Position numbers and translations under genes: made by a program. Of a DNA stretch of 64,000 bases, positions 15,636-28,967 are shown one piece after another. The notes beneath the pieces were generated by a model. It searched no databases. It saw only the letters and a list, made by a program, of their open reading frames with translations, and was not told where the DNA came from. Within the stretch, counting starts at the first letter, position 1. Each line of letters begins with the position of its first letter. Origin of the DNA: Candidatus Saccharimonadota bacterium (GTDB lineage: Bacteria > Patescibacteriota > Saccharimonadia > CAILAD01 > BJGX01); the NCBI GenBank assembly GCA_016191105.1, contig JACPPH010000008.1:136951-200950 (forward strand), read 5' to 3'.

Positions 15636-15712
15636 GCGCCCTTAGCTCAGCGGATTAGAGCGACTGGCTTCGGACCAGTAGGTCGGGGGTTCGAATCCCT
15701 CAGGGCGTACCA
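15636..15712 (+). tRNA. tRNA-Arg (anticodon TCG), CCA encoded
   Basis: GCGCCCT-TA-GCTC AGCGGATTA GAGC-G-ACTGG CTTCGGA CCAGT-AGGTC-GGGGG TTCGAAT CCCTC-AGGGCGT-A-CCA. Confidence 0.8.
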
Positions 15713-15846
15713 CGTCGAATTACTATTGTAGCTTTCGTAACTCACAGTTACTTCAGCTGACATATTAATTCTCCTCGCGATCAAAACCATTGCTGCTTTT
15801 GATCGGTTGAAAACAAGCCGATTCAAGTTGTCGAAATTTGAGTTGG
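15713..15846 (+). repeat. tRNA 3'-flank repeat module (family B) between tRNA-Arg(TCG) and tRNA-Lys
   Basis: cgtcgaattactattgtagctttcgtaactcacagttacttcagctgacata...ctcctcgcgatcaaaaccattgctgcttttgatcg. Near-identical to 15924-16065. Confidence 0.6.
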
Positions 15847-15923
15847 GGGCCATTAGCTCAGTTGGTTAGAGCATCTGCCTCTTAAGCAGAGTGTCCTGGG
15901 TTCGAGTCCCAGATGGCCCTCCA
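15847..15923 (+). tRNA. tRNA-Lys (anticodon CTT), CCA encoded
   Basis: GGGCCAT-TA-GCTC AGTTGGTTA GAGC-A-TCTGC CTCTTAA GCAGA-GTGTC-CTGGG TTCGAGT CCCAG-ATGGCCC-T-CCA. Confidence 0.85.
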
Positions 15924-16065
15924 CGTCGAATTACTATTGTAGCTTTCGTAATCCATGATTACTTCAGCTGACATAGCAATTCTCCTTGCGATCAAAACCA
16001 TTCCCGCTTTTGATCGAAAACAAAATAACCGATTCAAATTGTCGAAGAAATTTGAATCGAATAGC
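15924..16065 (+). repeat. tRNA 3'-flank repeat module (family B) between tRNA-Lys and tRNA-Pro
   Basis: Second tandem copy of the CGTCGAATTACTATTGTAGCTTTCGTAA...GATCAAAACC...GCTTTTGATCG module. Confidence 0.6.
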
Positions 16066-16142
16066 CGGGGTGTGGCGCAGTTGGCTAGCGCGCCGCGTTT
16101 GGGACGCGGAGGTCGAAGGTTCGAGTCCTTTCACCCCGACCA
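16066..16142 (+). tRNA. tRNA-Pro (anticodon TGG), C1:G72, CCA encoded
   Basis: CGGGGTG-TG-GCGC AGTTGGCTA GCGC-G-CCGCG TTTGGGA CGCGG-AGGTC-GAAGG TTCGAGT CCTTT-CACCCCG-A-CCA. Confidence 0.8.
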
Positions 16143-17929
16143 GAAGATATTTTTGGTAAATCCGCCAGTAAATTATATGGCGGATTTAGTGTTATTTCAG
16201 ATATAGAGTCGTTTGCGGCTCGTAGGTTCGACACTAGCTCGTTGCAAATAGTATCTTGTTCCACTAAATCGTTTGTGTTGAGCAATGTTTTCAGATAAGA
16301 ATCAATGAGTTCGTAGAAATCTTGCTCGCTTGGTAAGCTAGTGCCTAGTCGCTCCAATTCTTGCTCACTAGTTTTTTTGTTGTGTTTAGCTATATCTACC
16401 AGTTTTTGGTAGTGTTCTAATTTGCCATTGTGATGTTTTTTATAATCTTCTGGGTGGTCAACCTGAAACTGTTGGTAACGCATATAATGCTGTGTATTCG
16501 TTCTAACGTCTTTTTTCGCATTACTTAACTTGCGTTTAGCAATAGCTATCTCCTGTGCATGCTTGCTTTTTAGACGTTCAATGTACAGCTGATATGCTTC
16601 TTTACTATTCTTCGTTAGATGTCGTAAAGTCCACTCAATAGCTGACGAAACATATTTGGCTCTAATACTCTTTTTGAGTTTGATACCTTTCTCTCGGTTT
16701 TCTTCTGCTTTATAACGTTGGCAGTTAGTATTCCTGCAATAAAAACTAATAACCCATCTCCCCTTATTTTTGCCCTTTTTAATAGGCTGATGTTGGAATT
16801 GCATTGGAAGATCGCAGTAATCACAAATAACCTTGCCCCTTAGTAGGCCATAACCTAGCTTTTTGGCGTTTACAGAGTTGCCCACGTGTTTTTCACCGTA
16901 ACTAGCTGCCGTACCCTTGTTAAGGGCAATATACTCGTCAGGCGTCATTAAAGGCAAGAAGTCATAAGTTTCTGCTAAATTGGTCAGGTTGTTACCATAT
17001 CTATATAGCCCAAAATAGAATGGGTCTTCAAATAAATCGCCCACCATTTGTTTATCCACTCGCACTACCTTATAAGGCTCGTCTTGATCTTTACGTTCGC
17101 TAAAGTAGGCAGAGTTTAAGAATTCGGCAACCTCTATATTGCTTTTACCCTCCTGTAATCGCATGATTACACTTTGTCTCAATAAATCCCAGTTATATCC
17201 ATCTGGAATAAAGTATCCTGTACTAGCATCAACATAATAGCCTTTTTTTGTTACGCCGTTATATTTACCTTCTTTAATATTGCCACTAGTACCACGCTTA
17301 ACATCCACAGACAACTTATCAGAATACTGTTTCGAAGTGGCAAATAGTATTCCTAGCATCATTTTGCCATTTGGATTGTTCTCAAATTGGTACGTTCTGA
17401 ACTGTAAATCCTGAATCTGCTCATGGTCTATCATTTCAATGACTTCGCCCGCTTCTTTCATATTCCTTGATATTCTGTCGGGCGACCACGAAATTAGACC
17501 ATGATACTTGCCAGTCTTAAATCCCATAATCATGTCGTCAAATATAGGCCGATTGCCTGAGATCTTGGCAGAAGCTGACTCTTCAAGTATATCTTCTTCT
17601 CGTATTGTAATACCTTGTGCTTCCGCTAGTTCAAGACACTCAGACCGTTGATCTTCTAATGATCTAACTTGTTTTGATTCGTCATCAGTTGATTTACGTA
17701 GATATAGTACATAACACCGCCTTTCTTTTGGGAGTATTCGTTTACTTCCTTCTTGCTCACGAGCAAAATACTCTGTTAACTGCTCAACTGTATGGCTACT
17801 CGCAGGTAAATTAAATACGTCAGGATTACCTTCCTTTTGCTTGGCAAGCCTTTTTTCAATTTCAACTACCTTGTCGCTCGGTAGGTATGCAATCTTGCGT
17901 CTTCGTGCTGGTTTTTTCTGATTAGCCAT
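16085..17929 (-). CDS. large serine recombinase (resolvase/invertase catalytic domain + recombinase domain + zinc ribbon)
   Basis: N-terminal YVLYLRKSTDDESKQVRSLEDQ...ISWSPDRISRN (catalytic Ser/Arg motifs), central recombinase domain, Cys-rich CDYCD...CRNTNC zinc ribbon. The last 19 codons read through the tRNA-Pro(TGG) 3' half on the opposite strand. Confidence 0.85.
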   Translation of the reverse strand: MANQKKPARRRKIAYLPSDKVVEIEKRLAKQKEGNPDVFNLPASSHTVEQLTEYFAREQEGSKRILPKERRCYVLYLRKSTDDESKQVRSLEDQRSECLELAEAQGITIREEDILEESASAKISGNRPIFDDMIMGFKTGKYHGLISWSPDRISRNMKEAGEVIEMIDHEQIQDLQFRTYQFENNPNGKMMLGILFATSKQYSDKLSVDVKRGTSGNIKEGKYNGVTKKGYYVDASTGYFIPDGYNWDLLRQSVIMRLQEGKSNIEVAEFLNSAYFSERKDQDEPYKVVRVDKQMVGDLFEDPFYFGLYRYGNNLTNLAETYDFLPLMTPDEYIALNKGTAASYGEKHVGNSVNAKKLGYGLLRGKVICDYCDLPMQFQHQPIKKGKNKGRWVISFYCRNTNCQRYKAEENREKGIKLKKSIRAKYVSSAIEWTLRHLTKNSKEAYQLYIERLKSKHAQEIAIAKRKLSNAKKDVRTNTQHYMRYQQFQVDHPEDYKKHHNGKLEHYQKLVDIAKHNKKTSEQELERLGTSLPSEQDFYELIDSYLKTLLNTNDLVEQDTICNELVSNLRAANDSISEITLNPPYNLLADLPKISSGRGERTRTFDLRVPNAAR

Positions 17930-18035
17930 TCACACCTCAATAATAGTTATTTTCTCACTAGATTACGAACCTATCAAATCCTAAGTGTGACTTATAGTCC
18001 GTAGACCCATAGTCTACTGCTAATCAAGATAGGGT

Positions 18036-18254
18036 ATGACAAAAACATACCCAGAGGTAGCCGCTCAGTTTGGTCAAAGGCTTAGAAAAATTCGTGAATC
18101 AAAGGGCATCTCACAAGAGAAATTAGCCAATGAATCTGGGCTTGATCGCACATATGTCTCTGGAATTGAAAGAGGCAGACGCAATCCGTCACTTATCAAT
18201 ATCTCAAAACTGGCTAAAGGTTTAAACGTAAAGATCACGGATCTATTTAATTAG
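18036..18254 (+). CDS. XRE-family helix-turn-helix transcriptional regulator
   Basis: LRKIRESKGISQEKLANESGLDRTYVSGIERGRRNPSL canonical HTH_3. Divergent from the recombinase. Confidence 0.8.
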   Translation: MTKTYPEVAAQFGQRLRKIRESKGISQEKLANESGLDRTYVSGIERGRRNPSLINISKLAKGLNVKITDLFN

Positions 18255-18426
18255 TGTATGCTTTTTATTGTGTGAGAAAACTACCCTCTGTGTATCATTT
18301 TATAGCGTCAATTAATTCTTCTAACCTGGCCTAATTTGAAGCTATTGAATCTTTTGTTTAGATATTGCATTATATTTAAGTGTGACTTATAATCTACGCA
18401 AGTTAAAAATTAAATCAGGAGTTACT

Positions 18427-18978
18427 ATGGCAACTAAGAAATCTAACAAGACAGCTATTATCGTTGTAATTGCGATCATTGTAGCGTTATTGGTAGTAGG
18501 TGGAGGAGCATACTATTTCATTTGGGGCAACAAGACCCAAGTTACAACAAATAACGGTACAGCAAGTGTAGAGAGTAACACAAATAAGAAACAACTTAAT
18601 GTAGAGCAAATACTTGCAAACGTAAAAGCAAAATATCCTACCGTAACAGAAGTAAAAATATACAGTGAACAAAATGACCCAAACAATCAGCTAGGTAAGC
18701 CAGGGTATTACATAGCGGGAGGTGCTTTTGCAGATTCACGAGCAGGCGGAATCTCAGATAGCAATTGGGGTGCAGAAGCGGGTGGAAGTATAGAAATATA
18801 TCAGACAGAAGCAGATGCAGCAAAGAGAACAGAATATCTAAAGCAGTTTCAAGGCAATGCTTTGCTAGACCCAGGGGCTTATAAGCAGATTGGTGTAGTG
18901 ATTGTAAGAGCATCTAGCAAATTAACTGCTTCACAGCAGGCTGAGATTGTAGATTATCTTGCCAGCCAAGTGCAGTAA
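18427..18978 (+). CDS. membrane-anchored secreted protein of unknown function (island cargo)
   Basis: RBS AGGAG upstream of the ATG at 18427, N-terminal TM/signal peptide, Asn/Gly-rich mature part. Confidence 0.45.
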   Translation: MATKKSNKTAIIVVIAIIVALLVVGGGAYYFIWGNKTQVTTNNGTASVESNTNKKQLNVEQILANVKAKYPTVTEVKIYSEQNDPNNQLGKPGYYIAGGAFADSRAGGISDSNWGAEAGGSIEIYQTEADAAKRTEYLKQFQGNALLDPGAYKQIGVVIVRASSKLTASQQAEIVDYLASQVQ

Positions 18979-19016
18979 TGGTTCAATAGACCAAGATATT
19001 TAATTAGGAAAAACAA

Positions 19017-19655
19017 TTGGGATTTAAGGATCTAACGTCAAAGGCAAAAGCGAAGTGGGACGCTTACAACGAAGCTGCTAAGCAAAGAGCGGAAGAAGCA
19101 AGGAAAGAGCATGAAGCACAAGTAAAAGCAGAGAACGAACGCCGTGAAGCGGTTTTGTCTGGGAAACTTACACCCATTTCATTTCAAGGCTTAAGTTTAG
19201 ATGATGGTGAGACAGCTTATTATGGTGTTGGCGTAATAAGGTTTGCTGACAGAGAGTATGTTACTGAAGTCACAACTGGCAAAAGTAAGAAGAAACATGT
19301 CGTTAGTAGAGGTTTAGTTGGTGGTGTGCTTTTAGGCCCTGTTGGGCTGGTCGCAGGTGCGGCCACAGCAGGCAGTAAACACAACTCCAAAACCACCCAA
19401 CAAACCGATATACGCACCGAAGAAATAGACAGAGGGTCATTTTACTTAACAAATAAGAGACTATTGTTTGTAGGGTCAGAGATATTGTCACTCCCATACT
19501 CTAATATCTTAGCTTTTAGCGTAGAAAGTAATAAGTTGTATTTGAAGTACCCTGAAATGCAGCGAAATGAGTACTTTCAAGTTACAGATAACAACAACGA
19601 GCTTGATTTATACTATCAAGGTGTACAAAAATCGCTCGATAGTAGCAACAAATAG
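19017..19655 (+). CDS. hypothetical protein with PH-like (bPH/GRAM-like) C-terminal domain (island cargo)
   Basis: TTG start in the ORF track. Coiled-coil N-terminus and a YYGVGVIRF...GSFYLTNKRLLFVGSEILSLPYSNILAF pattern like bacterial PH domains. Confidence 0.4.
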   Translation: MGFKDLTSKAKAKWDAYNEAAKQRAEEARKEHEAQVKAENERREAVLSGKLTPISFQGLSLDDGETAYYGVGVIRFADREYVTEVTTGKSKKKHVVSRGLVGGVLLGPVGLVAGAATAGSKHNSKTTQQTDIRTEEIDRGSFYLTNKRLLFVGSEILSLPYSNILAFSVESNKLYLKYPEMQRNEYFQVTDNNNELDLYYQGVQKSLDSSNK

Positions 19656-19682
19656 TATAACTGGTCAATTACTGGTAAACAT

Positions 19683-20072
19683 TTAGGCAGCCCAGCTGTG
19701 GCCAAGGCTGTCTAGCTTCAAGTTATCACTTGTAAACATTATGGGTTCTTCTTCTTTGGCTAGACTATCAGATAGCTTAATAGCTAACTCTATCAATTTG
19801 CTAGTTGATACTTCTGATAAGTCTCTGTTACCTAATTCATCTCTAATAGCTGTCAATTGAGTCCCTAAAACCATCACTCTATGTCTTTTTGTAGCAAGGT
19901 ACTGATCACGTAGCGATTCTAGTTCAATCGCTTTATAATTTGCTAATTCACTTTCTAGTTCATCGCTCCATTTGATTAGGGTGGGTTTGCTTACTCCAAT
20001 AGATTCAGCAATACTGTTGTAGCTATTGCCTTTGGCTCTTAGCTCAATAAACTGCTGTTTCTTCTCATTCAT
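19683..20072 (-). CDS. HTH-domain protein (resolvase/terminase-small-subunit-like HTH; possible recombination directionality or regulatory factor)
   Basis: FIELRAKGNSYNSIAESIGVSKPTLIKWSDELE HTH motif, then a coiled coil. Confidence 0.45.
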   Translation of the reverse strand: MNEKKQQFIELRAKGNSYNSIAESIGVSKPTLIKWSDELESELANYKAIELESLRDQYLATKRHRVMVLGTQLTAIRDELGNRDLSEVSTSKLIELAIKLSDSLAKEEEPIMFTSDNLKLDSLGHSWAA

Positions 20073-20092
20073 AGGTTCTACAAACTTCTGGC

Positions 20093-20446
20093 TTAGAGAA
20101 AATTATTACCAGCCTGAGCATTGTGGCGTTCCACAGCCTGTCTATTTTTTTCTTCCTCTTCTTTAGTCCAGTAGTTTATCTTAAGACCAAATACAACACG
20201 ACTTACGGTGGCATTCTTGTTTTCTTTGCTTATATCGCCACCGCCTTCAATGAATTCCAGCACTTTAATACCAGCTTTGCCTGATTTTTTGTCTGAATGT
20301 TCTGCTGATACTGCTATATCAAACTCAATAGTGCGTGCATTGTCTTTCTCAGAAAACTGAATATCTCTTGATGTCTCTGTTCTAGCTTCATCAACAGCAG
20401 CATTGATCTGAGTTAAAACATCTTTCACAAAATCTTTTAAATTCAT
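20093..20446 (-). CDS. hypothetical protein (island cargo)
   Basis: 117-aa ORF. Its ATG overlaps the stop of an upstream 58-aa ORF (ATGA), suggesting translational coupling. Confidence 0.4.
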   Translation of the reverse strand: MNLKDFVKDVLTQINAAVDEARTETSRDIQFSEKDNARTIEFDIAVSAEHSDKKSGKAGIKVLEFIEGGGDISKENKNATVSRVVFGLKINYWTKEEEEKNRQAVERHNAQAGNNFL

Positions 20447-20619
20447 TGCTCTGTATCCTGTTTATTCTGTACAGATTGGCTTATATCAGGTGTTTGTGGC
20501 TTAAATTCTTCAATATGAACTCTACCATCTGGTGCAATAAATGGCCTATCTTCCCAATTAGTCGTGTCTGAGGGCGACGCTTGAGGTGGCAGTGGTTGTT
20601 CTTGAGGTTTATCTTCCAT
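20443..20619 (-). CDS. small hypothetical protein (58 aa), translationally coupled to the downstream gene
   Basis: ORF MEDKPQEQPLPPQASPSDTTNWEDRPFIAPDGRVHIEEFKPQTPDISQSVQNKQDTEQ, below the ORF-track size cutoff. Stop TGA overlaps the next ATG. Confidence 0.25.
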   Translation of the reverse strand: MEDKPQEQPLPPQASPSDTTNWEDRPFIAPDGRVHIEEFKPQTPDISQSVQNKQDTEQ

Positions 20620-20803
20620 AATTACATTATAGCAAGAATGTAGTTTCTAAGGCTCTACTAGGCTTTACCAGGTTATCAAGCTGTTGTTTTAGATGTTCTA
20701 ATTGATTATTGAGTAACCTATAATTGAGTAGAAGGGTATACAGGGCATCTAAGTTAGGTTCGATTTGAGTATGCATACCCCGACCACGTCATAATACCGC
20801 TTC

Positions 20804-20843
20804 AACACAAAAAGTGATTTCAACTGAAATCACTTTTGTTGTT
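20804..20843. repeat. perfect ~16-bp-stem inverted repeat (acaaaaagtgatttca / tgaaatcacttttgt)
   Basis: Seen directly; in the island's intergenic region. Confidence 0.6.
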
Positions 20844-20857
20844 TGTGCAGCATTTTT

Positions 20858-20896
20858 ACTCTTCAATTGAAAACAGTATAGTTTTCAATTGAAGAG
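20858..20896. repeat. perfect ~16-bp-stem inverted repeat (ctcttcaattgaaaac / gttttcaattgaagag)
   Basis: Seen directly; 15 nt from the previous IR. Confidence 0.6.
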
Positions 20897-20917
20897 CAGC
20901 AGTGATAAAATTAGATT

Positions 20918-21139
20918 ATGGATCTGAACTTATTTGTACAGCAAAATCTGTGGTGGCTGTTGCTTCTAACCGCCTGGAGTTTGGGCTGGAAAGGTTGGGC
21001 TCTTTGGCGGGCAGCCAAACTGGATCAAAAAGCTTGGTTTGTGGTTTTTATGATTGTTAACACCCTTGGAATTTTAGAAGTTTTTTATGTCTTCTATTTT
21101 TCCAAGCAAAAAACCGCTACAAAAACTGCCTCTAAATAA
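20918..21139 (+). CDS. small two-TM membrane protein (island cargo)
   Basis: 73 aa with two hydrophobic helices (LWWLLLLTAWSLGW / FVVFMIVNTLGILEVFYVFYF). Confidence 0.4.
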   Translation: MDLNLFVQQNLWWLLLLTAWSLGWKGWALWRAAKLDQKAWFVVFMIVNTLGILEVFYVFYFSKQKTATKTASK

Positions 21140-21413
21140 TGCGGTCGTTAGATCAGATTAGAGCCGATATAGACGTTGTCGATAAAGCACTCATCAATGA
21201 TTTGAAGCGGCGTTTTGAACTAACTCATGAGACCGGCGTATACAAGAAGACTCATAACTTACCAAGCCTAGATAATACCAGGTATCAAAAATGTTAGTGG
21301 CCAGAAATGAAGCAGCCAAGGCCGCTGGGCTACCCGAGGACTTAGCTATAGAAGTCTTTGGTCTAATTCACAAATATTCTGTACTAGAACAAGATAAGCT
21401 AAAATAGCCATTG

Positions 21414-21490
21414 CGGGGTGTGGCGCAGCCTGGTAGCGCGCAGCGTTCGGGACGCTGAGGTCGCCGGTTCAAGTCCGGCCACCCCGACCA
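21414..21490 (+). tRNA. tRNA-Pro (anticodon CGG), C1:G72, CCA encoded
   Basis: CGGGGTG-TG-GCGC AGCCTGGTA GCGC-G-CAGCG TTCGGGA CGCTG-AGGTC-GCCGG TTCAAGT CCGGC-CACCCCG-A-CCA. Confidence 0.85.
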
Positions 21491-21582
21491 ATCTAAGTTC
21501 ATCACTTGCTTAATTTAACTTGGCCAAGAGTTGCGTGATCTGAATCGGCGCGCCGGTTAGCCAGAATTGTATATCTGGCGCT

Positions 21583-21602
21583 GTCCGGCCACCCCGACCA
21601 AT
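21583..21602 (+). repeat. 20-nt direct repeat of the tRNA-Pro(CGG) 3' end (gtccggccaccccgaccaat), att-like remnant
   Basis: Exact copy of 21473-21492, located 93 nt downstream of the tRNA. Confidence 0.6.
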
Positions 21603-24583: not shown

Positions 24584-26441
24584 TGCATATTTAGTAGCTG
24601 CTTTAGGCATTGGCTTGTTTGCATTGTTATTTTTTGCCCAAACTGCCCAGGCTGCAACTTTTACGGTCGATAGCGTTGATGACGGCGGCAACGCGGGTGG
24701 CCCAGGTGTTTGTGACGATGGCGGCGGCAAGTGCACGCTGCGCGCGGCTATAGAGGCAGCCAACACTACAGCTGGAGCCGATGTAATTAATTTTGCCATT
24801 CCTGGTGGTGGGGGTGTAAACACCATTACACCGGGGTCAGACTATCCGGATATAACTGAGCAGCTTACTATAAATGGTGAAACCCAAAATAACCCAAGCT
24901 ATCCTACGATTGCGCCAGATGGTGCGAGTTGTGGCACATTGGTGCCCGCTAGCTTGCCGGCGAGTTCAAACACCCCACACGTACTTAAGATTGAAATCGA
25001 TGGCACCAGTGTAAATCGTGTTTTTAGTCTAGCTGCCAGCAATATCACTCTGCGCGGTCTTGCAATCCACGACGGCTCAACGGCAGTTTATGGCAACTCG
25101 AGTATAAATAATACTCTAATTGAGTGCAATTACATTGGCACAAATCCACCTGGCACGGCAGCCGAGGGTGGCACAGAAGGTATAAATCTACAAAGCAACA
25201 ATAATTCAACAATTCAAAATAATTTGCTAAGCGGCACAAATAACACAGGCATGTTTATTTACAACAGTAGTAATGTGCTTATCCAAAACAACTTGGTTGG
25301 GACTACCGCAATAGGCACGCAGGCGCTGGGTAATGGCAGTATTGGCATATATACCTACAATCTCACAAATGCGACCATTAGCCACAACATTGTTGCTGCG
25401 AACGGCGGCGGTGGTACGCGGGACGATTTGGGTACCTCAACCACTTTCACCGGTAATCTGGTGGGCATAGGCCTATCTGGTAGCCCATTGGGCAATACGG
25501 GCGATGGAGCAATCTTTAAGGGCTCGAACGGGTTTGTGGTTGGCGGCACATCTGCCACACTTCGCAACGTAATGTCGGCCAATACCGGTGATGGGCTACA
25601 TATTTTTGCCAACTGTGATGTCGGCTCATCACTAGTCTCGAACACATACGGCAACTATATTGGTACCAATACAGATGGCACAGTGCAGTCTGTATTCGGC
25701 AATGGCAAGGCGGGCATTGAAGTTAATGAATACCAAGGCAACTGTGGGTCGGTTTATAAACACCAAATTGGCGGCGATAGTGCTGGCCAAGCCAACATTA
25801 TAGCCGGCAATGGTGCTCAAGGTATCTTAATCCACCAGGACACCAATCACGATGTATTTAGCATAACGGCTATCGTGAATAGTATTTATGGCAACGGTCA
25901 GTTTGGTATTGATTTAGCTGCCGACAGTAGCACTACGAATGGGGTTGCCGACACCGATCTTGGCCCCAACCCGCTAAATTTACTAGCTATGACTTACCCC
26001 ACCACAGTTGCCAATTATTATCTTAATACCACTATTGTGAATTCGGCTACCTACTCTGGCAACCAGGTTACTGTTAATTACAGCTTGCAAGCCAACCCGG
26101 CACAAAATAGTAGTGACGGTGTTAGCTTACTTGCCAGTGATCTTGTTGGCTACCGCTTGGATTTTTATATAAATAGTGGCGGCCAGGACGGCGCTTATGC
26201 TGGCTATGGGCAGGGCAAAACCCATTTGGGCTCATTTATAGTAAATGGCTCAGAAACAAATGCCAACCATACTTTTATTAGCTCTGTTGCTTTGACCAAC
26301 GGCCAAACAATAACTGCTACCACGACCGTGCTTTGGACTAATAGTCCAGGCCCAGCTATTACGCCACGAGAGTGTGACGGTGAAACCGAACGAGAAGGCA
26401 ATGGACCACCATATAATTATGTAGGTTCTTGCCCTATGTAG
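24570..26441 (+). CDS. secreted CSLREA-domain protein with parallel beta-helix repeats (paralog 2)
   Basis: Same N-terminal module as paralog 1, with nucleotide tracts 100% identical over about 100 bp. Divergent central beta-helix, conserved C-terminal GYRLDFY...GKTHLGSF block. Confidence 0.6.
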   Translation: MLKRSAYLVAALGIGLFALLFFAQTAQAATFTVDSVDDGGNAGGPGVCDDGGGKCTLRAAIEAANTTAGADVINFAIPGGGGVNTITPGSDYPDITEQLTINGETQNNPSYPTIAPDGASCGTLVPASLPASSNTPHVLKIEIDGTSVNRVFSLAASNITLRGLAIHDGSTAVYGNSSINNTLIECNYIGTNPPGTAAEGGTEGINLQSNNNSTIQNNLLSGTNNTGMFIYNSSNVLIQNNLVGTTAIGTQALGNGSIGIYTYNLTNATISHNIVAANGGGGTRDDLGTSTTFTGNLVGIGLSGSPLGNTGDGAIFKGSNGFVVGGTSATLRNVMSANTGDGLHIFANCDVGSSLVSNTYGNYIGTNTDGTVQSVFGNGKAGIEVNEYQGNCGSVYKHQIGGDSAGQANIIAGNGAQGILIHQDTNHDVFSITAIVNSIYGNGQFGIDLAADSSTTNGVADTDLGPNPLNLLAMTYPTTVANYYLNTTIVNSATYSGNQVTVNYSLQANPAQNSSDGVSLLASDLVGYRLDFYINSGGQDGAYAGYGQGKTHLGSFIVNGSETNANHTFISSVALTNGQTITATTTVLWTNSPGPAITPRECDGETEREGNGPPYNYVGSCPM

Positions 26442-26621
26442 TTTTGTATTAGTGACGGACCACCTTATCAGATATCTAGTGACTGTAATTAAAAGCCCTT
26501 TGCAAAATCTTTAGAAACGACTATAGTGTAATTAGTTTTACAAAAGTATAGGTGGAATTTGGAAGAGCCAAGTTTGTTTATAATAATCTCTACCCATCTA
26601 GTTGGCGCAAACTGCCAACGA

Positions 26622-26649
26622 AACACTGAAGGCTGCAGCAAAAAAGCTG
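26622..26649 (+). terminator. Rho-independent terminator
   Basis: ggctgcagc-aaaaaa-gctgcag followed by tttttt. Confidence 0.45.
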
Positions 26650-26656
26650 CAGTTTT

Positions 26657-27682
26657 TTGTTTGGGACAAACACTATGAATGACTACATGTCCAAAAATAT
26701 ATCTGTTATAAAAAACTCTGGCAATCCTCAGAAAACTTGCCAAGAAGTATGCAGGTTGATATTCTCACACTACGAGCAGGGTCGGCTAAGTGCTGCCGAA
26801 GCGATGGTTTTGTTAAAAAGCAGCATAGTACAGTTAGATGATCGAAAAGAAGGCGGCTTTAGGTTTCTGTCTGTATGTAAAAAACCGGGCGCGATGCTAG
26901 CCATATTTGCACTAATAGGGGCACTACTAGGCGCGACTTTTACACTAAGTGGTGCATATAATTCAGCTCAAATTACCGTATTAATATTTAGCTGCTTCAT
27001 TAATTTGATATTAGGGGGTATGGTTTTTGCAAAAAATCCAAAGAGTCAATGTAACAAGATATTCTTTGCAACATCGATTGTACTGACAGGCTTTTTACTG
27101 ACCAATTTTATGTCTTTACACCCCCTAGCTTTAGCACAAATTACTTGGATAAGATTACAAATGGTGAGTGTAGTTAGCTTTGTATTAGGCTATTACCTCA
27201 TAATCTTGTTGTTTCCCAATAGGCTAATTACTCAATTGTCGCAATTCCAAAAAAGTGTCATTGGACTTTCACTCATATTAATAGGCTTGTGCTTAACACC
27301 AACGATTTTTGTTGCCACAACTCAAGCTCCCAATGCACGTCTTGGCAACTTATTCTTTTTAATACTTGTTCAACAATTTGGCTTAATAGTACTTACAATT
27401 TATGAAATATACAAGAAATCCAAGGTTGCCACAAAAACTAGAAAACTACAACTAGTCATAATAGCTGTTGGCATACTTTTTAGCTTTTTTGGTATCTTTG
27501 TATTCAACTTTATATTCGTTCAAGTACTGAATACTACTGCCTTCATCTACTTGAGTAATCTTGCCACTCTAGCCTTTACTGCTAGCTTTGCTTATGTAGT
27601 TTTTTACAAAAAAATGTTTGATAAGATACAGAGATTAAAAAAGTTATCAGGGCTAACCTGGATAACCGTGATTGGTGTTTGA
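26657..27682 (+). CDS. polytopic membrane protein of unknown function
   Basis: 341 aa with at least 7 predicted TM segments. Confidence 0.45.
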   Translation: MFGTNTMNDYMSKNISVIKNSGNPQKTCQEVCRLIFSHYEQGRLSAAEAMVLLKSSIVQLDDRKEGGFRFLSVCKKPGAMLAIFALIGALLGATFTLSGAYNSAQITVLIFSCFINLILGGMVFAKNPKSQCNKIFFATSIVLTGFLLTNFMSLHPLALAQITWIRLQMVSVVSFVLGYYLIILLFPNRLITQLSQFQKSVIGLSLILIGLCLTPTIFVATTQAPNARLGNLFFLILVQQFGLIVLTIYEIYKKSKVATKTRKLQLVIIAVGILFSFFGIFVFNFIFVQVLNTTAFIYLSNLATLAFTASFAYVVFYKKMFDKIQRLKKLSGLTWITVIGV

Positions 27683-27854
27683 TTATTTGCGAGCACATTC
27701 GCAATAAGCTGACTATGTTAGTTCTACCGCTGTTTTTGTAATAAATTTTATAGGTGAATCAAATATAATAAGAAAACCGAACCCATAATCCACACACATA
27801 ATCACTGGCTGCTGCTATCTATTGGCTAAGACCTAAAATAACTGGTAAACTTCT

Positions 27855-28328
27855 TTAGTCCCAGCTCCTAGATTGGTAAACTGCTATAACTAGAGAACAA
27901 ACAGGTTTGTGTTCACAGATTGTTCCAGAAACTGATAGTTTGATGGGGTGCCAGCTATGATCTGGGCGCCTTTTCATCATATCTGTTAAGGTCTTATAAA
28001 TATCTTTTTGAACCTCATCTTCACTGCTCCCAGTATGTTCTACAAACATACCCTGTTTAGTTTTTTTATCTAATACCCAACCTATACCCGCCCAAGCTTG
28101 TTTATTTGGGATAGTTTCACGTTTTTGAGCAATAACGCAGTAAAGTTTATGACCAAATTTGCCATTTTCTGGTTTTGGTTTGGATTGTATAATTTTTGAA
28201 CCAGCTGGAATAATCGAACTCAAGTAAATTAGATTATAGTTTGCAGCACCTGCTTCCTGTAGTGCAGTATCAAAGGCAGCTAAAGGAGTAGGTCCGCTGG
28301 CAGATGCCTTAACAACATGTATATCCAT
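27855..28328 (-). CDS. pdaD: pyruvoyl-dependent arginine decarboxylase
   Basis: ASGPTPLAAFDTALQEAGAANYNLIYLSSIIPAGS parallels the archaeal/bacterial PvlArgDC motif [31 protein letters not shown] (self-cleaving Ser-Ser). Confidence 0.65.
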   Translation of the reverse strand: MDIHVVKASASGPTPLAAFDTALQEAGAANYNLIYLSSIIPAGSKIIQSKPKPENGKFGHKLYCVIAQKRETIPNKQAWAGIGWVLDKKTKQGMFVEHTGSSEDEVQKDIYKTLTDMMKRRPDHSWHPIKLSVSGTICEHKPVCSLVIAVYQSRSWD

Positions 28329-28368
28329 AATAGATATTGTAAACTAAATTTAAAAGCATATATATATT

Positions 28369-28397
28369 GACAATCTAACTGAAATATAGTAGAATAG
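28369..28397 (+). promoter_or_regulatory. sigma70-like promoter TTGACA-N17-TAGAAT
   Basis: attgacaatctaactgaaatatagtagaat, immediately upstream of the higher-GC two-gene module. Confidence 0.45.
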
Positions 28398-28427
28398 AGA
28401 AAGTTCTTTTTACAGAAGGAACGATCC

Positions 28428-28967
28428 TTGAGAACGGGAGTAAACATGCAGAAATTGGAATCAAACAGCGATCATCTTGAGTTCCAGCTTCCGCTGGTGG
28501 TCAAGGTTTTCGTGTTCGTGATCCCACTTTGGATCATCAACGCGTATGCCACCCGATTAGGTCTCTGGCCCGTAGGAATTGCTCTCTCCGTAATCACGGC
28601 GAGTGCAATTATTTGGCAATGGCCGAAGATTGAACGTGGAATTGTCAAACTCCGCCACAAAGCAATCAACGACTACCACGTCAGTCCCAAGACTTTTGCT
28701 GTGCTTTACATCTTCAGTTTTGCGCCTTTCTATCTTGGCCTGTTCATGATGGCCGAAGGTGTCGTTCGTCAAAGTTGGGCGCTAGTTGCGCTAGGAGGAC
28801 TGATCAATCGGTTTTCGTATGCGCTTCCTTATCTCTACGTCATTTTCTGGGGGGATCTCACTGAAAAGGTAGGAATTTGGAAGATCAGGCTTAGACTAAA
28901 CGTCTTGGTGTGGGGTTGGATTGTCATTTCGGTGGCTTTCTTTGTCCTAACAAAGGTGCTCTCGTAG
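28428..28967 (+). CDS. membrane protein of unknown function (higher-GC module)
   Basis: 4 TM helices. Codon usage is richer in C-ending codons than neighbouring genes. Confidence 0.45.
   Translation: MRTGVNMQKLESNSDHLEFQLPLVVKVFVFVIPLWIINAYATRLGLWPVGIALSVITASAIIWQWPKIERGIVKLRHKAINDYHVSPKTFAVLYIFSFAPFYLGLFMMAEGVVRQSWALVALGGLINRFSYALPYLYVIFWGDLTEKVGIWKIRLRLNVLVWGWIVISVAFFVLTKVLS

Follow-up and report, generated by a model that had tools for sequence, protein, structure and literature searches.

The window analysed here is a stretch of 64,000 nucleotides (nt) from contig JACPPH010000008.1 of a Candidatus Saccharimonadota bacterium (assembly GCA_016191105.1). Its positions 16143-20786 are very probably occupied by an integrated copy of a small Saccharibacteria/Patescibacteria element, mobilised by a large serine recombinase (LSR). 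The attachment site of the free form, attP, lies inside the LSR gene, and the state of the element would be recorded in the isoform of the LSR and in an operon linked to the 3′ end of the gene.

Integrase gene and its displaced 3′ end

The features on which this reading builds were the following:

16066-16142, plus strand: tRNA-Pro(TGG), intact (ARAGORN; Rfam tRNA 67 bits), forming the B arm of the attachment (att) site
16085-17929, minus strand: LSR gene in its integrated state, 614 amino acids (aa); open reading frame (ORF) with a Pfam Resolvase match at E 3.5e-19 and weak matches to Recombinase and Zn_ribbon_recom
20627-20776, minus strand: LSR gene, displaced 3′ end with 49 codons and the stop, encoding MHTQIEPNLDALYTLLLNYRLLNNQLEHLKQQLDNLVKPSRALETTFLL; match to a hidden Markov model (HMM) of the tail at E 7.8e-24
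20786 joined to 16143: predicted attP junction, ...GAGTATGCATACCCCGACCAGAAGATATTTTTGG...
predicted empty attB junction, ...GTCCTTTCACCCCGACCACGTCATAATACCGC...

The element is delimited by a 10-nt direct repeat, ACCCCGACCA, with exact copies at 16133-16142 and 20777-20786. The repeat corresponds to the last 10 nt of tRNA-Pro(TGG), CCA included. The att-defined element thus begins directly 3′ of the encoded CCA of this tRNA and has a length of 4,644 bp.

Residues 1-599 of the LSR are encoded by the element (17929-16133). The ORF then crosses the left repeat and stops inside the tRNA gene, and the last 15 residues, ERTRTFDLRVPNAAR, are the antisense strand of tRNA-Pro(TGG). When the element was joined at the repeat into a circle, the LSR body ran in frame into the 20627-20776 ORF, giving a protein of 648 aa. 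This displaced tail was homologous to the C-termini of full-length LSRs found in the free state (P0012, P0014 and P0079). Read from the sequence, the LSR gene contains attP in its 3′ part, and recombination with the 3′ end of tRNA-Pro(TGG) therefore splits the gene; integration separates the body from its 49-residue tail, and in the circle the gene is whole. With integration, a conserved, helical tail of 49 residues is swapped for 15 unrelated residues, and the catalytic and DNA-binding body stays whole. An earlier note on this stretch, made by a model from the letters and their ORFs, had recognized neither the LSR ORF ending in antisense tRNA nor the 49-aa ORF at 20627-20776 as the LSR C-terminus.

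Free circular forms

The contig encoding P0012 was assembled twice, from a Joint Genome Institute (JGI) metagenome and in a GenBank assembly (L001 and L002), as circular permutations offset by 95 nt. Each version had an exact terminal overlap of 127 nt, closing to a circle of 4,553 bp. The contigs encoding P0014 came from several samples (L003-L006) and had circularly permuted gene orders; one of them (L004) likewise overlapped by 127 nt and closed to a circle of 6,904 bp. Both circles encoded a full-length LSR. When an integrated relative (L012) was aligned with the L001 circle, its two ends adjoined at position 2620/2621, within the LSR gene and near residue 600, which corresponds to the relation expected between attP and attL/attR.

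Related elements

A search with the fused protein returned 381 homologues, including one identical to the window protein (P0001). The best 120 of these 381 were 57-100% identical, and the named ones among them came from Saccharibacteria or Patescibacteria. The conserved body of the homologues ended in ...LNPPYNLLVDLxxIS(T/S)GR, and beyond it two classes were recognized: (i) integrated forms, with C-terminal peptides that were recognisably antisense tRNA, e.g., GERTRTFDLRVPNAAR or ...VPNRARYQLRHTP; and (ii) full-length forms of ~650 aa (P0012, P0014 and P0079), with the tail ...TDTAIEPxLxxLYxLLLNY...ERAxxTxFLL. The read-through peptides were variable and had 3-60 residues. A search of 1.84 billion representatives with the tail only gave five matches, of which four were ORFs of 60-93 aa ending in the tail. 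These four are evidently attR fragments called as genes, and the LSR representatives at 50% identity are evidently integrated forms. The C-terminal 154 residues gave one match in a homologue search, the sensitivity of which was limited by the word index.

By scanning genomes, one per species, we obtained 79 loci. The close family accounted for ~55 loci, and in nearly all of them the 3′ end of the LSR gene overlapped a tRNA gene in antisense. The target was mostly tRNA-Pro(TGG), and in other cases Pro(CGG), Pro(GGG), Val, Gln, Leu or Ser. Searching for attR by the longest repeat picked spurious repeats and the other tRNA-Pro gene, and was replaced by a search with the tail HMM, built from eight tails, and by an anchored junction search. 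In ~50 loci the HMM recognized a tail fragment upstream of the LSR gene and on its strand (E 1e-7 to 1e-26), and nothing comparable on the opposite strand of the same loci.

The junctions were counted with the tRNA end as anchor. There were 43 integrated junctions, 39 of them with at least 3.5 kb of upstream sequence, and the tail was found upstream in 37/39. In every one of these 37 the shared core joined it in frame to the LSR body, for which chance would give (1/3)^37. The size of the elements ranged from 2.8 to 7.9 kb.

The stop position of the tail was the same in 26/26 elements. Over the last 38 tail codons, which lie outside the DNA needed for the att site, the ratio of non-synonymous to synonymous substitution rates (dN/dS) was 0.18-0.20, which makes the tail a protein-coding module kept by purifying selection. 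Every tail ended in a hydrophobic tripeptide, (F/V)(L/M/V)(L/I/M/F). The residues at the LSR junction co-varied with the target, being GR for tRNA-Pro, GG for tRNA-Val, GA for tRNA-Leu and GGE for tRNA-Ser, and the split arrangement was kept in sub-families aimed at five tRNA types. The gene order was not conserved among the relatives.

Two loci had an unusual organization. In L017 (4803-6668) there were apparent tandem elements, the tail of the tRNA-proximal element being fused in frame to a second LSR body, as a full-length ORF of 622 aa at the internal junction. In L052 no recognisable tRNA followed the LSR junction at attL and only ACCCCGACCA was kept, which may represent a secondary site or a degraded target.

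Geometry of the attachment sites

In the window, the arms of the att sites were located as follows:

16117-16123: B-arm motif AGGTTCG in the tRNA, starting 26 nt from the CCA end
16133-16142: attL copy of the core ACCCCGACCA, the last 10 nt of the tRNA
16143-16182: P′ arm of attP, next to attL within the element, also encoding ...NPPYNLLADLPKISS of the LSR (consensus of 26 elements)
20747-20786: P arm of attP with the attR core (20777-20786); AGGTTCG at 20756-20762, starting 31 nt from the CCA-like end

The shared core ranged from 6 to 10 nt and was usually TGGTCG, the antisense of the last six tRNA nt, CGACCA. For other targets it was TGGTGG (tRNA-Val), TGGTGC (tRNA-Leu) and TGGCGGA (tRNA-Ser). 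Because only the last 6 nt were shared across the family, the crossover is placed inside CGACCA, and the tRNA is therefore left untouched.

We aligned 26 elements on the CCA end. In the B arm, provided by the tRNA, GGTT started 25 nt from the CCA end in 25/26; in the P arm, on the element side of attR, it started 30 nt from the CCA end in 24/25. The same spacing was seen in the window, with AGGTTCG 5 bp further out in the P arm than in the tRNA. For LSRs, the structure of LI integrase established that the motif bound by the zinc ribbon lies 5 bp nearer to the center in attB than in attP (PMC3783163), as restated in the study of the SPbeta integrase (PMC11722253). The spacing of the B and P arms thus has the 5-bp shift that is the hallmark of LSR sites. 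The P′ arm was conserved and doubled as codons for NPPYNLLVDL..IS; the B′ arm, which is host flank, was not conserved, and the shift holds for the B/P pair of arms only.

Recombinase domains and fold

The window enzyme is a true but deep-branching LSR, and it is intact. Its Pfam catalytic domain (PF00239) covered residues 74-223, with E 3.5e-19 and 69.8 bits against a cut-off of 23.3. The catalytic R-x-S-T residues R78, S80 and T81 were invariant in 20 homologues, as were the zinc-ribbon cysteines C369, C372, C398 and C403. The Recombinase domain (PF07508) scored just below its cut-off in the window protein (19.7 against 21.1 bits) and was precomputed for many homologues, and the zinc-ribbon domain PF13408 was weak (19.9 bits). 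The tyrosine-recombinase domain Phage_integrase had no match in the window LSR.

The AlphaFold2 (AF2) model of the homologue P0012 (mean predicted local distance difference test, pLDDT, 70.6) showed a long coiled coil in addition to the catalytic, recombinase and zinc-ribbon domains, with long helices at 447-495 and 507-533. In Foldseek, this model matched SPbeta integrase complexes (E 1.8e-13, ~583 columns), phiC31 integrase (E 1.9e-9), LI integrase (E 1.4e-6) and Bxb1 (E 1.6e-3).

At the sequence level the relation to phage enzymes was distant. Identity to integrases in phage records was at most 27%, over half the protein. The PDB gave only a weak match to the catalytic domain, and no sequence-related solved structure beyond that domain. 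The close LSR family was absent from the IMG/VR viral contigs, where two relatives only, with 31-32% identity, were found. The element is not tied to a known phage, because IMG/VR and the phage records gave distant LSRs only.

Tail-linked operon, regulator and cargo

Between the LSR gene and its displaced tail we annotated the following:

17930-18035: control region of the divergent LSR and XRE genes, with the promoter-like TTGATA-17-GAAAAT with TG extension at 17977-17949 on the minus strand (consensus scan, weak)
18036-18254, plus strand: XRE-family helix-turn-helix (HTH) regulator, 72 aa (Pfam HTH_3 E 9.7e-19; PHROG transcriptional regulator families)
18382-18978, plus strand: protein of 198 aa with one N-terminal membrane helix; variable cargo without a significant family, a singleton among 28 elements
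19017-19655, plus strand: protein of 212 aa with a glycine-zipper-like hydrophobic segment; variable cargo, a singleton among 28 elements
19683-20072, minus strand: HTH protein of 129 aa, last gene of the operon, present in 15/28 elements
20093-20446, minus strand: protein of 117 aa; variable cargo, a singleton among 28 elements; it begins with a 4-nt overlap with the stop of the 58-aa ORF
20443-20619, minus strand: conserved ORF of 58 aa, separated by 7 nt from the stop of the LSR tail

Integration moves the tail and the 58/117/129-aa operon downstream of it to the far end of the element, away from the LSR promoter region. A crude consensus scan found no promoter-like site on the minus strand of 20620-20917. 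The circular contigs likewise had a gap of 7 nt between the LSR stop and a small ORF. Among the 28 delimited elements, the widely shared genes were the LSR (28/28), the small ORF after the tail (24/28; motif PPQxSPxDTSNWDDRPF..P.GR..IE) and the HTH protein (15/28); the 58-aa ORF carries the motif PPQxSPxDTSNW(D/E)DRPF..P.GR..IE. XRE or HTH_17 regulators were common but diverse among the relatives. No recombination directionality factor (RDF) was identified in the element, and the 58-aa ORF and the 129-aa HTH protein are candidates for this role.

The cargo of the window element (117, 198 and 212 aa) had no convincing family match. The 212-aa protein matched only PHROG families of unknown function (E 2e-6 and weaker), and the 117-aa protein matched Trypco2 at E 0.0015, below the Pfam threshold. 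PADLOC, run on the window, matched the XRE regulator only, to "control protein" and other HTH models, and gave no defence family for the cargo. The Trypco2 and defence readings of the cargo were rejected, the former match being sub-threshold and the latter having no PADLOC match. Pfam and PHROG recognized no primase or replication gene in the window element. Defence-type cargo was found in relatives: SMODS and AGS_C with SLATT_4 in L048, an N6_N4 DNA methylase with a 385-aa partner in L016, and an Mrr_cat nuclease in L013. An APH-family kinase, DUF4145 and GIY-YIG also occurred among the cargo of relatives.

Several gene calls of the earlier note held: the 614-aa LSR, with an intact ORF and its Resolvase match; the divergent XRE gene, with its HTH_3 match; and the minus-strand run of three genes (58, 117 and 129 aa, the last with an HTH) with a stop/start overlap of 4 nt. 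For the protein described there as secreted, the 198-aa ORF and one N-terminal membrane helix were found. The label "PH-like" for the 212-aa protein had to be dropped, its sole Pfam match being Vps36 GLUE at E 0.067. A defence or exclusion function, also proposed, was not detectable in this copy by PADLOC, and relatives do carry defence-type cargo. The broader view of a mobile island with variable cargo agrees with the intact recombinase, the foreign composition, the unconserved gene order of the relatives and the existence of free circles.

Borders and surroundings of the element

The following features lie between the right repeat and the end of the second tRNA-Pro gene:

20810-20837, plus strand: hairpin followed by a T-rich run (terminator-like scan, 12 pairs), on the host side just past attR and not part of the element
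20918-21139: DUF5652 protein (Pfam E 3.5e-22), outside the element
21139-~21410: frameshifted chorismate mutase (CM_2), outside the element, with its N-terminal half at 21139-21297
21414-21490, plus strand: tRNA-Pro(CGG) (ARAGORN, Rfam), outside the element

The DUF5652 gene, the broken chorismate mutase and tRNA-Pro(CGG) are all placed outside, because the right repeat ends at 20786. In two relatives (L010 and L016) a DUF5652 gene was found at the equivalent place outside attR. In a third (L009) the element was again flanked by two tRNA-Pro genes, with a different filler between. The N-terminal 52 residues of the chorismate mutase matched Pfam CM_2 at E 6e-9, and its C-terminal part continued in another frame, reaching tRNA-Pro(CGG); by its reading frames, this gene is probably a pseudogene. 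Hairpins comparable to that at 20810-20837 followed attR in many relatives, and the one in the window probably terminates the tRNA cluster when the site is unoccupied.

The G + C content of the element was 38.7%, compared with 46.7% in the rest of the 64-kb window. The profile ran at 36-40% through the region and at ~46% around it, and 0/251 same-sized segments outside the element, within the 64-kb window, were as AT-rich. The filler of ~630 nt between attR and tRNA-Pro(CGG) (20787-21413), although outside the element, was also AT-rich, with 38.9% G + C. Further AT-rich stretches of the window, with 33-39% G + C, were located at 26250-28500 and from 29500.

The earlier note had described an AT-rich island bracketed by two tRNA-Pro genes, TGG and CGG. 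The coordinates of both tRNAs were confirmed by ARAGORN and Rfam, and so was the low G + C content; the bracketing was not, the element ending at 20786. Likewise, the att position suggested near 21413 was wrong, the attR core being at 20777-20786. The two-transmembrane small protein listed as cargo is the DUF5652 protein, outside attR.

Other repeats were seen near the element. An exact 20-nt direct repeat, GTCCGGCCACCCCGACCAAT, was present at 21473-21492 and 21583-21602, 110 nt apart, and consisted of the 3′ end of tRNA-Pro(CGG) plus 2 nt. It exceeds the LSR-family cores (6-10 nt) in length and looks like the scar of another tRNA-targeting element. As the right end of the element it was rejected: it lies outside, has neither tail nor P arm, and duplicates the other tRNA. 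Upstream, two repeat units of 198 nt (15638-15835 and 15849-16046) were 78% identical. Each consisted of a tRNA (Arg-TCG or Lys-CTT) and a spacer of ~120 nt with the inverted repeat CGATCAAAACCATT...GCTTTTGATCG. Directly past the attR core, the bases CGTCATAATAC resembled the spacer start of these units.

Proposed working and alternative explanations

In the circle, the 58/117/129-aa operon would stand directly after the LSR gene as one co-directional unit, and it would therefore be transcribed from the LSR promoter. The 58-aa operon is plausibly expressed from the circle only. In the integrated state, transcription of the LSR gene would run head-on into the tRNA gene, which may damp LSR expression. 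The element would in this way record its own state, free or integrated, in the LSR isoform and in the expression of the tail-linked operon. As free circles exist and the tails are maintained, the truncated isoform must still be capable of excision. Integration is presumably the work of the full-length isoform, the form at hand when integration has to take place. From these two points, the tail would most likely modulate the directionality, activity or stability of the LSR. A stricter form of the proposal, in which full-length LSR integrates only and truncated LSR excises, alone or with the tail-linked 58-aa protein, we regard as rather unlikely. If true, the enzyme would be rewritten, and its preferred direction reversed, by the recombination product itself, with no conventionally regulated RDF involved. 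The family would then also provide natural serine integrases aimed at the universally conserved tRNA 3′ ends in Patescibacteria.

Several points weigh against the state-recording element proposed here. Neither an empty site nor a circle junction was found for this particular organism: exact look-ups of the flanking host proteins gave nothing useful on an empty site for the species, and of two attB patterns searched against metagenome contigs, one gave no match and the other a single, unrelated high-GC match. Two relatives (L041 and L044) had ample upstream sequence and no detectable tail. The intact tails in integrated copies could reflect recent integration, and not selection for excision. 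Any difference in activity between the isoforms is purely inferred. In the model of P0012, the tail helices (609-620 and 622-640), like the preceding NPPY segment, had low confidence (pLDDT 37-59), too low for an inference on the docking of the tail. Also, the promoter and terminator scans were crude consensus matches, with 16 promoter-like sites found against 15.0 expected, i.e., not enriched.

That attP and the end of the LSR gene overlap might be incidental, due to genome compaction, with the tail having a general role in the free form and the truncated enzyme being equivalent or dead, without any state-dependent regulation. The unconfident placement of the tail by AF2 would agree with this, as would the read-through peptides, which are variable junk of 3-60 residues, and the frequent disorder of LSR C-terminal ends, 28 C-terminal residues being unseen in the cryo-electron microscopy maps of SPbeta (PMC11722253). 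However, the tail is conserved as a protein (dN/dS ~0.2), is intact and in frame in 37/37, and the arrangement persists in sub-families with five tRNA target types, so that we consider an incidental overlap unlikely. According to the title of a 2021 study by Abe et al., the extreme C-terminus of SprA reportedly influences directionality, a precedent for such a role in an LSR that also speaks against an incidental overlap. The tail could also chiefly be a stability or degradation signal, making the free-form LSR short-lived and the integrated form stable, or the reverse. The hydrophobic tripeptide at the end of every tail points in this direction, and in mycobacteriophage integration-dependent immunity, integration removes a C-terminal ssrA-like tag (PMC8092301). 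Yet the conserved tail comprises ~48 residues of predicted helix, far beyond the need of a degron, and in the mycobacteriophage systems the gene spanning attP is that of the repressor, not of the integrase; we therefore hold a degron to be improbable. Least probable of all, and already contradicted in its borders, is an island of 5.3 kb between the two tRNA-Pro genes, with defence or exclusion cargo. The AT-richness of 20787-21413, the two tRNA-Pro genes flanking an element in L009 too, and the restriction-modification, SMODS-SLATT and Mrr cargo of relatives are in its favour, whereas the right end at 20786 follows from the core repeat, from the P arm and from a tail that is in frame, the DUF5652 gene is outside attR in L010 and L016 as well, and the cargo in the window had no defence-family match.

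A different question is that of lifestyle. The elements may be minimalist phage satellites, in the style of phage-inducible chromosomal islands (PICI) and their minimalist counterparts (PICMI), which would spread through a helper phage, its packaging being hijacked by the 129-aa protein as a small-terminase-like HTH protein. We know of no helper phage for this element family. The 129-aa protein matched PHROG families of the terminase small subunit (E 3e-5 and 7e-5), but over the HTH only. In its AF2 model (pLDDT 85) an HTH was combined with a long helical hairpin and two short strands at the C-terminus. Among the best Foldseek matches over the full length were the phage protein 2ao9 and the small terminases of Sf6 and NV1; they were not significant (best E 0.058). 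Homologues ~48% identical were found in Bacilli, in L089 (Peribacillus asahii CP085720.1) and in L091 and L092 (Bacillus subtilis). There they follow an HTH_17 gene and a primase with DnaG zinc-ribbon and D5_N domains, and in the Bacillus loci serine-recombinase genes or fragments lie downstream, a PICI-like layout shared across phyla. Satellites of ~5-6 kb are known (PMC10803314). On the other side, the HTH protein was present in 15/28 elements only and the close family was absent from the IMG/VR viral contigs. A minimalist satellite lifestyle, which would be compatible with the state-recording element, is thus possible but weakly supported, and on balance we think it unlikely.

Comparison with known systems

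In 2015, serine integrases at tRNA genes were stated not to be known (PMC4383910). A survey from 2020 considered the use of tRNA genes by serine integrases "not reported previously" and predicted it in 14/297 cases, "requiring experimental proof" (PMC7192596). With more than 40 independent junctions, the family described here contradicts the working rule that serine integrases avoid tRNA genes. The common cores at tRNA sites are typically 25-76 bp long (PMC8092301). Compared with the classical Islander type of tRNA island, with its tyrosine integrase and a displaced tRNA fragment of sufficient length to rebuild the gene, the present element differs in having a serine integrase, in repeating only the last 6-10 nt and in leaving the tRNA uninterrupted.

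The one-way control of serine integrases and its reversal are an active structural and biotechnological question. Because natural selection has put the crossover inside the integrase gene here, every recombination swaps a conserved C-terminal module and uncouples an operon. The short, defined att sites at the tRNA-Pro 3′ end could give an integration tool for Saccharibacteria, which are host-dependent and hard to engineer. Pipelines that need a complete integrase ORF inside the island, or that reject ORFs overlapping tRNAs, will mis-handle such elements systematically and report a wrong C-terminus.

With SprA of SPbeta and the integrases of phiC31, LI/A118 and Bxb1, the LSR shares the catalytic, recombinase and zinc-ribbon domains with the embedded coiled coil, as well as the short core and the 5-bp motif shift. 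To our knowledge, the known large serine integrases keep attP outside their own gene and use a separate RDF.

The closest parallels to the split gene come from tyrosine recombinases. Mx8 Int is the tyrosine recombinase of a 49-kb tailed phage of Myxococcus. Its attP is within the int coding sequence, and integration into a tRNA gene yields a recombinant gene with a new 3′ end, so that the prophage integrase has another C-terminus (IntP to IntX; PMC6070905, PMC4383910). Alike are the attP in the integrase gene, the tRNA target and the C-terminus changed by integration; different here are the LSR, the 6-10-nt core, the LSR half-sites, the element size of 3-8 kb and the operon displaced together with the tail. 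In SSV1-type fuselloviruses, the split takes a substantial N-terminal part away and is not known to leave an intact enzyme in the integrated state. The integrase gene of these Sulfolobus viruses extends across attP and is partitioned on integration into a tRNA gene (PMC4383910; see also PMC8371274). In contrast to these archaeal tyrosine recombinases, the whole body stays intact here and only the last 49 residues are exchanged.

In the integration-dependent immunity of mycobacteriophages (BPs, Brujita, Mab clusters), attP is in the repressor gene and integration acts as a genetic switch, as described in PMC8092301 (see also PMC3694055). The free and integrated products differ in their C-terminus in both cases. 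There, however, the repressor is split, by a tyrosine integrase and with removal of an ssrA-like degradation tag of 20-35 residues, whereas here it is the serine integrase itself. Like PICMI (PMC10803314), the element is small and integrative and carries few genes, among them those of an integrase and a regulator, and its cargo varies. It differs in that its family has no known helper phage and no recognised replication gene, and in that the small-terminase similarity is weak.

In the literature searched, which was incomplete, neither this family nor a serine integrase gene spanning attP was described, the cases found being tyrosine integrases only. The element described here is LSR-driven and combines the targeting of tRNA 3′ ends with an attP embedded in its own integrase gene.

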